A stretch of DNA of 64,000 nt from the NCBI GenBank assembly GCA_017412085.1, contig JAFPYS010000019.1:17869-81868 (forward strand), given 5' to 3'. A program made the position numbers and the translations under genes. The notes beneath the pieces were generated by a model, which had not been told where the DNA came from, searched no databases, and saw only the letters and a program-made list of their open reading frames with translations. Source of the stretch: Alphaproteobacteria bacterium (lineage in GTDB: Bacteria; Pseudomonadota; Alphaproteobacteria; CAAHEQ01; UBA3637). The first letter of the stretch is position 1. Each line of letters begins with the position of its first letter. Below are positions 24,182-30,833 of this stretch, piece after piece.

Positions 24182-25105
24182 TTACTTCTTTTTTTTAGAA
24201 AAGTCAAGTGGTGATTGATTTTTCTGTTTGTTCATCTCTTCGGCGCCCGAAACAATATCGATCAGCTCATCAGTAATTTGTGCTTGTCTGAGTTGTTGAT
24301 ACTGGAGATGAAATTCATCCAAAGAATCTTCAATGTTTTGTTCCGCTTCTTGCATATGAATCATGCGGGTATAGTGTTCACTTGCCAAACTAGAAACTAG
24401 ATCGTGTAGTACCATAACGGTCAGATACTCGTGCAAAAGAGCGCGAAACAATTGATCTTTATCAACGCTAATCATTGGAAGAGAGCGCCCATCCCATTTG
24501 GTGCGTTGCAATTGGTCCATATTTTCTTCTGGAAAGGGAATTAATTGCCGTGCCCGAGCGACAAAAGCGGCATTTCCTTGTTTGTGATTTGAAAATAAAT
24601 ATACAAAATCGATTTTATGAGCTGAGGCAATCTTGTTTATTTTGTTTAAAAGTTGTGCTGATATGGGCGCCAATTCTTTAAGTGAGTTTGAAATAGGATA
24701 GGTCGCCTCCAAAATATATTTAGGCTTGGATGAAGCCAGCAATCCGATGCGTTTGCCAACGGCGATAATATGTGGTTTGGAATCCGGAAACTGGTTTTGT
24801 AAATATTTTTCTGTAAATTTCATTAAATCCCGATTAAAGCGTCCAACCAACCCATTGTCTGAACCAATAATAATACCCAGGACATCTGACGCTTTGCTTG
24901 AAGATTTTGGGAGATCATAGTGAAAAGAATCTTGAGCAAATAATCCATGGAAAGCATCGCGGATTGTTTGCCCGTATTGCCTGAGGGATTGAAGCGCTTT
25001 TTCGTACTGACCAACGCTGACGGAGGACAGCATTTTCATGGTGCTGACAATCTCACCAAGATCCGAAGTCGTTTTTATTCGACGATTAAGCGCTTCTAAG
25101 CTCAT
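24182..25105 (-). CDS. atpG: N-type ATPase gamma subunit
   Basis: 307 aa. Gamma-like N- and C-terminal helices (IKTTSDLGEIVSTMKMLS ... ITDELIDIVSGAE). Last gene of the operon. Confidence 0.85.
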   Translation of the reverse strand: MSLEALNRRIKTTSDLGEIVSTMKMLSSVSVGQYEKALQSLRQYGQTIRDAFHGLFAQDSFHYDLPKSSSKASDVLGIIIGSDNGLVGRFNRDLMKFTEKYLQNQFPDSKPHIIAVGKRIGLLASSKPKYILEATYPISNSLKELAPISAQLLNKINKIASAHKIDFVYLFSNHKQGNAAFVARARQLIPFPEENMDQLQRTKWDGRSLPMISVDKDQLFRALLHEYLTVMVLHDLVSSLASEHYTRMIHMQEAEQNIEDSLDEFHLQYQQLRQAQITDELIDIVSGAEEMNKQKNQSPLDFSKKKK

Positions 25106-26617
25106 TTATAATCCTTTTTTATCAAGGGCCGAACGAAAGGCATCCAATAATTTGTTTTGAGTAGATGGATCTAGTTTCTCTCGCTTTAAAACAATTCGAT
25201 CAACAATGGATGAGAAACGTTGATGAAGTGTTTTATGAATAATATCTTGTGCCTGCAAGATTTGTTTGTCATTCATTGTATCAAAAATGCCATTGTTCAC
25301 AGATAAGAAGACTGCGATTTGGGTTGCCACATCCATGGGGTGAAATTGAACCTGTTGTAAAACCAAACGAATTGCATGACCACGATTTAACTTCTGCTGT
25401 GTTTCAGCATCCAGTTGAACGCCAAATTTTGAGAAGGATTCCAATTCTTCAAATTGTGAGTAAAAAAGCTTAAGTGGCCCCAATAATTGCCGATAAGCAG
25501 GTAATTGGGCTTCACCCCCAACGCGGGAGACAGAACGACCTGTATCAATTGCGGGCATGATGCCCTTTTGGAACAAGGACGTTGATAAATAAATCTGACC
25601 ATCTGTAATAGAAATTACATTGGTTGGAATATACGCGGAAATATTGCCCGCTTCCGTTGAAACAATTGGAAGAGAAGTTAATGAACCACCGCCCAATTTG
25701 TTAATTAAATGTGTGGAGCGTTCAAGTAATCTTGAATGAATATAGAAAATATCTCCAGGATAGGCTTCACGTCCAGGGGGTGTTCTTAAAAGTAAAGACA
25801 TCTGACGATAGGCGCGCGCATGGGCAGTTAGATCATCATAAACAATCAGAACATCCTTGCCTTTCATCATAAACCATTCGGCAATAGATGTGGCAGAATA
25901 GGGTGCAATAAATTGTAAACCGGCTTCTTCTTCACCGTTGGCAACAACAATAACGGAATGGTCCATCATGCCGCCGTTTTTTAATTGATCAATAACACGT
26001 GCGGTATCGGCACTGCGTTGCCCAATGGCGCAATAAATACAAATAACACCTGTTTCTTTTTGATTTAGGATGGTATCGACAGCAATGGCCGTTTTACCCG
26101 TTTGACGATCTCCCAGGATTAACTCACGTTGTCCCCGTCCAATCGGGGTAAAGGAATCGATAGCCTTAATTCCTGTTTGAAGAGGGGTATCCACTGGGGC
26201 GCGATCCATGATAGAATGTGCTGGTCGTTCAATCGGCCAATTTTCTTTTGTGTGTATCTTGCCCTGTTCATCCAACGGTTGACCCAAAGGATTTATGACA
26301 CGCCCCAACAATTCCGGGCCGACAGGAACTTCCAAAATGCGTCCAGTTTGCTCTGCCCGGTCTCCCGCCGTTAAAGAATCCGCATTTGTTAAAAACACAA
26401 CACCAGCTGATTTGTCTTCCAAGTTATGAACCATGCCAATCACACCATTCTTAAATGTCAAAAGCTCATTAATTTTTGCATTAGATAGCCCAGATACTTG
26501 TGCTGTTCCTGCGGAAATAGATATAACTTCATTTGCCTCTTTCACGTGCAATTTGGGGGCTGTTTTTTTGATGGCAGCTTGAATGCTTCGATCTATTTTT
26601 AAAGCTTTTTGTTTCAT
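25106..26617 (-). CDS. atpA: N-type ATPase alpha subunit
   Basis: 503 aa. Walker A GDRQTGKT. Carries LLLRTPPGREAYPGD and IYLSTSLF. Confidence 0.95.
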   Translation of the reverse strand: MKQKALKIDRSIQAAIKKTAPKLHVKEANEVISISAGTAQVSGLSNAKINELLTFKNGVIGMVHNLEDKSAGVVFLTNADSLTAGDRAEQTGRILEVPVGPELLGRVINPLGQPLDEQGKIHTKENWPIERPAHSIMDRAPVDTPLQTGIKAIDSFTPIGRGQRELILGDRQTGKTAIAVDTILNQKETGVICIYCAIGQRSADTARVIDQLKNGGMMDHSVIVVANGEEEAGLQFIAPYSATSIAEWFMMKGKDVLIVYDDLTAHARAYRQMSLLLRTPPGREAYPGDIFYIHSRLLERSTHLINKLGGGSLTSLPIVSTEAGNISAYIPTNVISITDGQIYLSTSLFQKGIMPAIDTGRSVSRVGGEAQLPAYRQLLGPLKLFYSQFEELESFSKFGVQLDAETQQKLNRGHAIRLVLQQVQFHPMDVATQIAVFLSVNNGIFDTMNDKQILQAQDIIHKTLHQRFSSIVDRIVLKREKLDPSTQNKLLDAFRSALDKKGL

Positions 26618-27405
26618 TTACGTGCCTTTCGTTGAACGGGGACAATTAAATTTTCGATATTTTGTTTTAAACGTTGGTTGATTTCCTCCAAATAACCATT
26701 CAAATTCCATTCTAGTACGAAAGTACCAACGCGCATTTCGATTCCCAACACTAAATCTTGACGCTTTTTGAATTGAAAGCGCATTTTGGGAGGAAGTGTA
26801 AGATTTTTGCTCACAATATTTTGGATATAAACTTGTTGTTTCGTCGTTAATTTTTCTGATGTGATAATCTGAATTAACTTTTCTTGTTTAATAAGCTTTT
26901 CCAGAACATTTTTCTTTTGTTTTGAAAGAGCGTGAATCTTTTTGTGAAACAAAGATAGGATTTGATCCATAGGTGTTTGTTGGGTCCATTCGGATAAAAT
27001 TTTCCGAGACAACGTCATAAATTCAGTTGCAAGCATTTCTTGAATGCTTACCTGTGATGTTTCCCATGAACGATTTAAATCTTCCTGCAAATTTTCGCGC
27101 TTAATCCTGTAATTTAATTCCAATTCTTTCATCATTTTAGCTTTTTGTTGATGAATATCGCGTTCCATTTCATCTAATCGTTTTTGATATAATTTATCAA
27201 AATCCTTTTGTTGTTGTTTTAGATGTGCTTCCTGTTCTTCCGAGGATTTTAGTTTGTCCTCAGCTTCTTGTATGGTGTCGGCGACTTCTTTCCTGCGCTT
27301 ATCTATAATACTTAGAACTGGCCGGTACAAGAAATGTTGTAACAACCATATTAATAAGAACAGGTTAACAATTTGCGCGATAAATGTGATAAGATTAAAT
27401 CCCAT
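26614..27405 (-). CDS. atpF: N-type ATPase subunit b with a delta/OSCP-like C-terminal extension
   Basis: 263 aa. N-terminal TM, long charged coiled coil, then a C-terminal segment (LVLGIEMRVGTFVLEWNLNGYLEEINQRL) resembling the C-terminus of subunit delta. No separate delta gene is present in the operon. Confidence 0.75.
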   Translation of the reverse strand: MGFNLITFIAQIVNLFLLIWLLQHFLYRPVLSIIDKRRKEVADTIQEAEDKLKSSEEQEAHLKQQQKDFDKLYQKRLDEMERDIHQQKAKMMKELELNYRIKRENLQEDLNRSWETSQVSIQEMLATEFMTLSRKILSEWTQQTPMDQILSLFHKKIHALSKQKKNVLEKLIKQEKLIQIITSEKLTTKQQVYIQNIVSKNLTLPPKMRFQFKKRQDLVLGIEMRVGTFVLEWNLNGYLEEINQRLKQNIENLIVPVQRKARK

Positions 27406-30775: not shown

Positions 30776-30804
30776 CTTCCCCCCAATTTTAACTATCTTA
30801 AAAC

Positions 30805-30833
30805 AGTGTAAAGGTTTTTGACAATCCTGTCAA
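30805..30833 (-). promoter_or_regulatory. Candidate promoter of the N-ATPase operon; its -35 lies inside a perfect palindrome
   Basis: Read on the minus strand: TTGACA (30833-30828), 17-nt spacer, TACACT (30810-30805). TTGACA-GGAT-TGTCAA is a perfect inverted repeat spanning 30818-30833. Confidence 0.4.

Follow-up and report, generated by a model that had tools for sequence, protein, structure and literature searches.

The 64,000-nucleotide stretch of contig JAFPYS010000019.1 that we analysed (hereafter the window) comes from an uncultured alphaproteobacterium and contains a nine-gene ATPase operon on its minus strand. This operon probably encodes a complete and functional N-type rotary ATPase (N1No), which most likely exports Na+ at the expense of ATP; it belongs to a divergent clade confined to gut Alphaproteobacteria and appears to be vertically inherited there. 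The operon itself was confirmed to be complete and intact. The initial annotation had read it as an N-type rather than an F1Fo enzyme, and that reading is supported alike by the order of the genes, the presence of AtpQ and AtpR, the lack of a delta gene, the length of b, the ion site of the c subunit and the alpha/beta tree. The sequence hallmarks by which Dibrova, Galperin and Mulkidjanian (2010; PMC2881411) defined the N-ATPases (the order atpDCQRBEFAG, AtpQ, AtpR, no atpH, a long b subunit, the c-subunit site and clustering) were all found, and the features of a canonical F-type operon (a separate delta/OSCP protein with its N-terminal domain, the order (I)BEFHAGDC or the split order of Alphaproteobacteria, no AtpR) were not. 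Judged by its sequences, the operon is a divergent branch of the known N-ATPase family.

Layout of the operon

Nine consecutive co-directional open reading frames (ORFs) of 460, 133, 109, 96, 232, 92, 263, 503 and 307 amino acids (aa) occupy positions 24182-30775 of the minus strand. Searches with NCBIfam and Pfam models identified them, in this order, as beta, epsilon, AtpQ (ATPase_gene1), AtpR, a, c, b, alpha and gamma. All nine matched the expected families with E-values from 1e-6 to 1e-214, so chance was discounted. The features of the operon are listed below, with scores in bits.

29393..30775, minus strand: atpD, N-type beta subunit (catalytic), 460 aa; best NCBIfam model TIGR03305 'alternate F1F0 beta', 711 against a cutoff of 752
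28995..29396, minus strand: atpC, epsilon subunit, 133 aa; TIGR03166 'alternate F1F0 epsilon', 105.7 against a cutoff of 100.1; PF02823
28679..29008, minus strand: atpQ, membrane protein, 109 aa; TIGR02230, 50.4 against a cutoff of 46.7; PF09527, 44.6 against 26.6
28392..28682, minus strand: atpR, N-ATPase hallmark membrane protein, 96 aa; PF12966 (AtpR), 46.1 against a cutoff of 26
27697..28395, minus strand: atpB, a subunit (ion channel and stator), 232 aa; best NCBIfam model TIGR03306, 251 against a cutoff of 302; PF00119
27416..27694, minus strand: atpE, c subunit (rotor ring), 92 aa; best NCBIfam model TIGR03322, 117.9 against a cutoff of 130.85
26614..27405, minus strand: atpF, b subunit with delta C-terminal domain, 263 aa; best NCBIfam model TIGR03321, 130 against a cutoff of 225
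25106..26617, minus strand: atpA, alpha subunit, 503 aa; best NCBIfam model TIGR03324, 707 against a cutoff of 750.5
24182..25105, minus strand: atpG, gamma subunit (central shaft), 307 aa; best NCBIfam model TIGR03323, 217 against a cutoff of 282; PF00231
30805..30833, minus strand: promoter-like site TTGACA-17-TACACT upstream of atpD, 10/12 consensus matches

ATGA overlaps of 4 nucleotides (nt) join beta to epsilon, Q to R, R to a and b to alpha, and epsilon overlaps Q by 14 nt. Overlaps of ATGA or longer had been described in the initial annotation for the whole row of nine genes; they were present at five of the eight junctions, whereas a and c are 2 nt apart, c and b are 10 nt apart, and alpha and gamma directly adjoin each other (0 nt). 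The span given there, 24182-30833, was right at its start but not at its end: position 30833 is non-coding and is the first base of the promoter-like site, and coding starts with the ATG at 30775. A purine-rich GGGGGGAAG ribosome-binding stretch lies between this site and the atpD ATG. The position of the 30833-30805 site suggests that it may serve as the promoter. The scan gave no more promoter- or terminator-like sites than shuffled sequence gives, so the transcript boundaries are not established by it.

Key motifs are intact in beta (Walker A GGAGVGKT at residue 146, the catalytic glutamate motif GERSREG at 177, DNIFRF at 240), in alpha (P-loop GDRQTGKT at residue 169, the arginine-finger motif SVSRVG at 362) and in the a subunit, where the essential arginine is Arg164 (RLYGN). 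Synonymous sites are saturated even against the closest related species (L003), which makes dN/dS unusable, so only the nonsynonymous divergence (dN) was compared. Against L003, beta (0.056) and c (0.044) had diverged less by this measure than the housekeeping genes accD (0.125) and HU (0.089) beside the operon.

The two small membrane proteins also agree with the N-type. AtpQ (PF09527/TIGR02230) takes the place of AtpI, as in other N-ATPases, and hydropathy predicts two membrane helices and shows a lysine-rich C-terminus. For AtpR, hydropathy predicts three membrane helices, the second of which contains Arg53 and the third Arg83. When the AtpR of the window was aligned with 30 others, Arg53 was invariant among the 31 sequences, and most of these had Arg or Lys at position 83, as did each of the five gut-clade members described below.

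Two side observations concern these subunits. One public scaffold of the same contig (L001) has a run of N at 12051-12060, corresponding to about 28716-28725 of the window, in the lysine-coding, A-rich 3' end of atpQ. The 147-aa AtpQ without AtpR that is called in L001 was ruled out as a real variant, being the product of this assembly gap; the window and L002 are identical. In beta, the loop equivalent to DELSEED reads DELPEKD (residues 378-384, about 29624-29644 of the window). This motif is DELPEKD in the gut clade, E(Q/E)LSxxD in other N-types and DELS(D/E)(E/D)D in the F-type loci, so that the loop of the N-type enzymes is less acidic than that of the F-type loci, and this might bear on inhibition by epsilon.

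Family models, gene order and phylogeny

A search with the models for the alternate F1Fo ATPase (N-type), suggested together with the initial annotation, supported the N-type: these models scored best of all NCBIfam models for eight of the nine subunits. The exception was epsilon, for which the generic model NF004871 (116 bits) was slightly above TIGR03166 (105.7 bits). Gamma reached only 143 bits with the canonical model TIGR01146, and AtpR 28.8 bits with TIGR03165 (cutoff 55.5). Only epsilon and Q passed the NCBIfam N-type cutoffs; the other seven subunits (beta, alpha, gamma, a, c, b and R) stayed below them. These sub-cutoff scores and the generic 'F0F1' naming by NCBI arise because the clade is divergent; the scores are a database threshold effect and no defining biological feature. 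In the public record the b subunit stands as 'hypothetical protein II938_03845' and beta under the generic name 'F0F1 ATP synthase subunit beta'.

The comparison set consisted of the 80 best relatives of beta, with one genome per species, and the gene order was read at each locus. All 64 loci with a beta at least 56% identical had the order beta-epsilon-Q-(R)-a-c-b-alpha-gamma or a known permutation of it, and all 16 loci with a beta 52-56% identical had the canonical order a-c-b-delta-alpha-gamma-beta-epsilon. Five loci of cyanobacteria and Desulfamplus (L007, L008, L010, L057 and L060) had no gene but beta in the vicinity of the match, or had the order a-c-b-alpha-gamma ... beta-epsilon-Q, which fits earlier reports of insertions and permutations in cyanobacteria and Persephonella.

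The alpha/beta phylogeny that had also been proposed as a check gave the same answer. In trees of alpha, beta and the concatenated subunits (65 taxa), which were built by neighbour-joining only and contain no alphaproteobacterial F-type sequences, the window and the N-type enzymes were monophyletic in 60 of 60 bootstraps, apart from the F-type enzymes. The scores from phmmer likewise set the N-type apart from the F-type for every subunit. N-type beta subunits scored 564-630 bits, far above the F-types of Paracoccus and mitochondria. In the comparison with solved structures, the Paracoccus F-type reached 448 bits for alpha and 498 bits for beta, other bacterial F-types reached up to 523 and 536 bits, and mitochondrial F-type subunits were also below the best-scoring bacterial F-types. 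Since the Paracoccus and mitochondrial F-types score this low, the enzyme of the window does not group with the F-type enzymes of Alphaproteobacteria.

Five gut sequences, including that of the window, formed one clade (60/60 bootstraps). This gut clade was sister to all 45 other sampled N-type loci in 50 of 60 bootstraps for alpha, 58 of 60 for beta and 60 of 60 for the concatenated alignment. The distances were in line with this position: beta of the window was 60% identical to those of the 45 other N-types, which were 71.5% identical among themselves, and the corresponding values for alpha were 52% and 64%.

The b subunit and the missing delta gene

Neither a stand-alone delta gene nor a second set of rotary-ATPase genes was found within the 64-kb window, so the missing delta gene noted in the initial annotation was borne out over this range. 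The suggestion that the C-terminus of b is delta/OSCP-like was also supported, for the C-terminal domain of delta only. The delta model TIGR01145 matched residues 169-246 of b (E 7e-5), and hhalign of b against ten F-type delta proteins from canonical loci aligned b 178-250 with delta 114-186 (96.4% probability, E 1e-9). A profile of 22 N-type b proteins searched against the PDB matched F-type b chains at residues 1-155 and delta/OSCP chains at 164-246 with E-values down to 3.6e-10, and it also matched mycobacterial b-delta chains. The AlphaFold2 model of b (mean pLDDT, the predicted local distance difference test, 82) has one membrane helix, a long helix over residues 5-140 and an alpha/beta domain over 145-253. 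Foldseek matched this model to V/A-type subunit E chains (6vq8_J, 4dt0, 3v6i_A) and to the OSCP/delta C-terminal domain (6rda_P, TM-score 0.79). According to these profile and model comparisons, b is a fusion with the C-terminal domain of delta only, and the N-terminal bundle by which delta binds alpha is absent.

The b/delta relation at the C-terminus has already been published for N-ATPases (PMC2881411) and is not new. The V/A-type subunit E is likewise a long helix with an alpha/beta domain at its end, but b has in addition an N-terminal membrane anchor, which subunit E lacks. The mycobacterial b-delta fusion differs in being about 445 aa long and in having the N-terminal helical bundle of delta that grips alpha. 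No N-ATPase holoenzyme and no homologue of AtpR was detectable by sequence in the PDB copy searched. How the catalytic head is held by a stalk without the N-terminal domain of delta is a question for the whole N-ATPase family.

The ion site of the c subunit

Each membrane helix of the c subunit carries a glutamate: helix 1 has Glu30, and helix 2 has Glu63 as part of the motif Glu63-Ser64-Thr65-x-x-Tyr68. Among the five gut-clade c subunits, four have Glu-Ser-Thr (EST) and one has Glu-Thr-Thr (ETT). The loop reads AQQPD, which is common to all sampled N-type c subunits in the motif table of 65 loci. By alignment (56 bits), the ligand set matches that of the Fusobacterium nucleatum c subunit (3zk1), and from this correspondence Glu30, Glu63, Ser64, Thr65 and Tyr68 are assigned as a full Na+-binding set. 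The F. nucleatum c11 ring (PDB 3zk1) is a Na+-coupled, two-carboxylate ring with ion-site residues identical to those of the operon, but it belongs to a canonical F-type synthase with a separate delta and no AtpR, and its helix 1 motif consists of glycines throughout, whereas the operon has GxGxAxG.

Neighbourhood, inheritance and host

The operon lies between core genes, with tyrS upstream and HU and accD downstream, exactly as the initial annotation had placed it.

30881-32164: tyrS, upstream flank of the operon
23873-24148: HU, downstream flank
23015-23860: accD, downstream flank

Relatives with 81-92% identity in beta share the arrangement accBC-(sensor kinase)-tyrS-[operon]-HU-accD, and at 73-77% beta identity tyrS or accBC still lies near the operon. 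The guanine-plus-cytosine (GC) content of the operon is 40.3%, against 40.4% for the rest of the window, and the GC content at third codon positions likewise equals that of the flanks. No integrase, transposase, tRNA or repeat was found at the operon borders. The conserved neighbourhood and the matching GC content therefore point to long vertical inheritance within the clade, and the operon appears not to have been transferred recently. The N-ATPase family as a whole has been described as laterally transferred (PMC2881411), but the label 'laterally mobile' that the initial annotation had carried over to this operon did not hold for the locus, in view of the core-gene neighbourhood conserved within the clade and the lack of a compositional anomaly.

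Beta has the same sequence as MBQ3696087.1, a protein of a metagenome-assembled genome (MAG) labelled 'Alphaproteobacteria bacterium' and obtained from ruminant gastrointestinal metagenomes. Among the 80 best beta matches, the closest species-level relatives came from goat, roe deer, the MAG INTA.CYC.063 of unspecified source, and human gut. The window also encodes a three-gene HydABC-type [FeFe]-hydrogenase cluster at 53785-57744 on the minus strand.

57262-57744, minus strand: NuoE-like 2Fe-2S protein (HydABC cluster)
55539-57290, minus strand: NuoF-like FMN/4Fe-4S protein (HydABC cluster)
53785-55545, minus strand: HydA catalytic subunit (HydABC cluster)

The domain architecture of HydABC is that of NADH/ferredoxin-dependent hydrogenases and, as far as gene content can tell, marks the host as an anaerobic H2 producer. 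In the relative L086, a different, monomeric-type Fe-hydrogenase gene stands directly beside accC.

Gut Alphaproteobacteria of the order Rs-D84 have been reported to lack respiratory chains, with an 'F0F1-type ATP synthase' in some genomes only (PMC12306168). Rs-D84 genomes have also been reported without glucose-6-phosphate isomerase (PMC12306168). Because the window has a gene for this enzyme, the host is probably outside this reduced-genome order, and a link of the clade to Rs-D84/Candidatus Enterousia, which we had considered, was countered by the same gene. No ATPase census for the gut orders RF32 and Rs-D84 was found in the literature.

Proposed function

Gene content and order, the intact motifs, the homology of all subunits, the N-type placement, the neighbourhood and the constraint on the genes are direct observations, and the following scheme would fit them. 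An alpha3-beta3 head, a gamma-epsilon shaft, a c-ring rotor and the a subunit would form the core of the enzyme, and b fused to the C-terminal domain of delta would serve as the stator stalk. AtpQ and AtpR would be the two small membrane proteins that accompany the N1No enzyme. A published hypothesis, which may apply here, pairs the two membrane arginines of AtpR with the two membrane glutamates of each c subunit, either in ring assembly or in regulation. Hydrolysis of ATP would drive Na+ out of the cell. The host would be a strictly anaerobic, H2-producing gut alphaproteobacterium whose ATP would come from fermentation, and the enzyme would represent a divergent clade confined to gut Alphaproteobacteria, with its operon fixed among housekeeping genes. 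Coupling to Na+ rather than H+ is suggested by the residues of the c site, and the pump rather than the synthase direction by the fermentative anaerobic host and the family literature, in which N-ATPases are ATP-driven ion pumps (PMC2881411, PMC11738941).

Some results weigh against this assignment. Under the cutoff rule of NCBIfam, seven of the nine subunits are not called N-type, and the gut clade is sister to the other sampled N-ATPases rather than nested in them. The pump direction draws on the published rule that genomes with an N-ATPase always have a typical F- or A-type ATP synthase as well (PMC2881411). Two-carboxylate c sites can be H+-specific, as in Burkholderia pseudomallei (PMC5376962), so Na+ coupling is a prediction only. 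In the site scan, no terminator or tested promoter delimits the transcript.

Alternative explanations

In another reading, which we think the less probable one, the enzyme may be N-type by descent but the sole rotary ATPase of its lineage, a housekeeping enzyme left after the canonical alphaproteobacterial F-type operons were lost. In this form it would spend fermentative ATP on keeping up a sodium- or proton-motive force, or work the other way round as a synthase driven by a Na+ gradient. Such a role would suit the fixed position between tyrS and HU-accD, with tyrS or accBC still nearby in the more distant relatives, the GC content shared with the flanks, the stronger constraint on beta and c than on the flanking housekeeping genes, and a host that is an anaerobic hydrogen-evolving fermenter. 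The window holds no other ATPase gene over its 64 kb, the patchy 'F0F1-type ATP synthase' of the respiration-free Rs-D84 genomes (PMC12306168) points the same way, and a precedent exists in the Chloroflexota genus T78, in which an N-type enzyme is the single ATPase of 18 of 20 genomes (PMC11738941). However, the genomic basis for this reading amounts to about 64 kb of the host genome and about 20 kb from each of a few relatives, N-ATPases are second copies by the published rule (PMC2881411), and the ProAD census of GTDB names T78 as the only exception (PMC11738941). The comparison with Rs-D84 is further weakened by the glucose-6-phosphate isomerase gene, which probably puts the host outside that order (PMC12306168).

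It is rather unlikely that the enzyme is coupled to protons like the N-ATPase of B. pseudomallei, pumping H+ for pH homeostasis. The c17 ring of that species also comes from an N-type operon, also has its second glutamate in helix 1, and is the only biochemically characterised N-type c ring; it proved H+-specific despite its two carboxylates (PMC5376962). About half of the N-ATPases are H+-coupled by ProAD prediction (PMC11738941). But the site of the B. pseudomallei ring is Glu-Thr-Met...Tyr (ETMxxY), with Thr-Met at the positions of Ser64-Thr65 (PMC5376962), whereas the c subunit of the operon has Glu-Ser-Thr...Tyr and thus, with Ser64, Thr65, Tyr68 and Glu30, the full ligand set predicted for Na+ from F. 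nucleatum; within the clade, four of five members have EST and the fifth ETT. An ATP-driven Na+ pump is therefore the reading that we prefer for the ion as well.

A recently acquired mobile island, of the kind known from Methanosarcina and from cyanobacterial plasmids, is very improbable. The family is described as laterally transferred (PMC2881411), and the clade is unrelated to the N-ATPases of the other sampled Alphaproteobacteria (L012, L065). Yet the same neighbourhood occurs in species whose synonymous sites are saturated, the overall and third-codon-position GC contents equal those of the flanks, and the borders carry no integrase, transposase, tRNA or repeat. Any transfer must be older than the diversification of the clade, and a recent one was rejected on the conservation of the neighbourhood and on composition.

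That the enzyme is an F-type ATP synthase of the ordinary kind, as the NCBI name 'F0F1 ATP synthase subunit beta' would have it, and merely has its genes in another order is hardly credible: the generic models TIGR01039 and TIGR00962 pass their cutoffs where the N-type models fall just short, but the N-type model is best in eight of nine subunits, the operon encodes AtpR and AtpQ, a delta gene is missing and b has the delta C-terminal domain only, the N-type gene order was seen in none of the 16 F-type loci, and the grouping with N-type enzymes was recovered in 60 of 60 bootstraps.

Other genes in the window

A gene resembling family GT10 alpha-1,3-fucosyltransferases, with FucT_N and Glyco_transf_10 domains, lies at 1802-2782 on the minus strand. 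Such fucosyltransferases are unusual in Alphaproteobacteria, and in gut bacteria, for example Helicobacter, they are a route to the mimicry of host glycans (Lewis antigens). The window further encodes a TspO/MBR-family membrane protein (6243-6701, minus strand) and a Tim44-domain protein (48575-49144, plus strand); both families have mitochondrial relatives, and the two genes are consistent with alphaproteobacterial ancestry. At 40485-46297 on the minus strand, an AddB-like gene (PDDEXK_1, 894 aa) and an AddA/UvrD-like gene form a helicase-nuclease pair and overlap by 31 nt; the AddA/UvrD-like ORF has 1052 aa, and 1043 aa in the public gene set. AddAB is the alphaproteobacterial type of enzyme for processing double-strand breaks. 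A 176-aa ORF at 53403-53933 on the minus strand overlaps tRNA-Ser(TGA) at 53646-53735 on the plus strand and is probably spurious.

Comparison with known N-ATPases and significance

N-ATPases are known from Methanosarcina, Burkholderia, marine cyanobacteria and many phyla, and they share with the operon the gene order, AtpQ, and AtpR with its arginines (PMC2881411). They also lack a delta gene and have a long b with the delta C-terminal domain, a two-glutamate c subunit, in most members the ESTxxY motif, and the AQQPD loop (PMC2881411). The operon differs from them in lying outside all 45 sampled loci, in falling mostly under the NCBIfam cutoffs and in being vertically stable rather than island-like. 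The genus T78 may be an earlier example of an anaerobe with an N-ATPase as its sole rotary enzyme (PMC11738941), although its enzyme is predicted to be H+-coupled and its phylum is not that of the operon's host.

The family has been known since 2010, and about 1,800 N-ATPases are on record from GTDB genomes (PMC11738941), so what the result directly offers is better annotation. The gut-alphaproteobacterial clade comprises at least 120 protein clusters in metagenomes, and as the whole clade falls under the curated N-type cutoffs, its N-type nature is invisible in current annotation. A clade that lies outside the other sampled N-ATPases could help to root the family and to date its origin.

If no other rotary ATPase is present in the host, the clade would be a natural system for an N-ATPase acting alone. 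The rule that the N-ATPase is always the second enzyme would then be broken for a whole clade, the second such case after the Chloroflexota T78. It would also mean that the mitochondrion-type F1Fo enzyme has been lost in this lineage and that a deep-branching, Na+-coupled N-type ATPase acts in its place as the housekeeping generator of the membrane potential or as a Na+-driven synthase.

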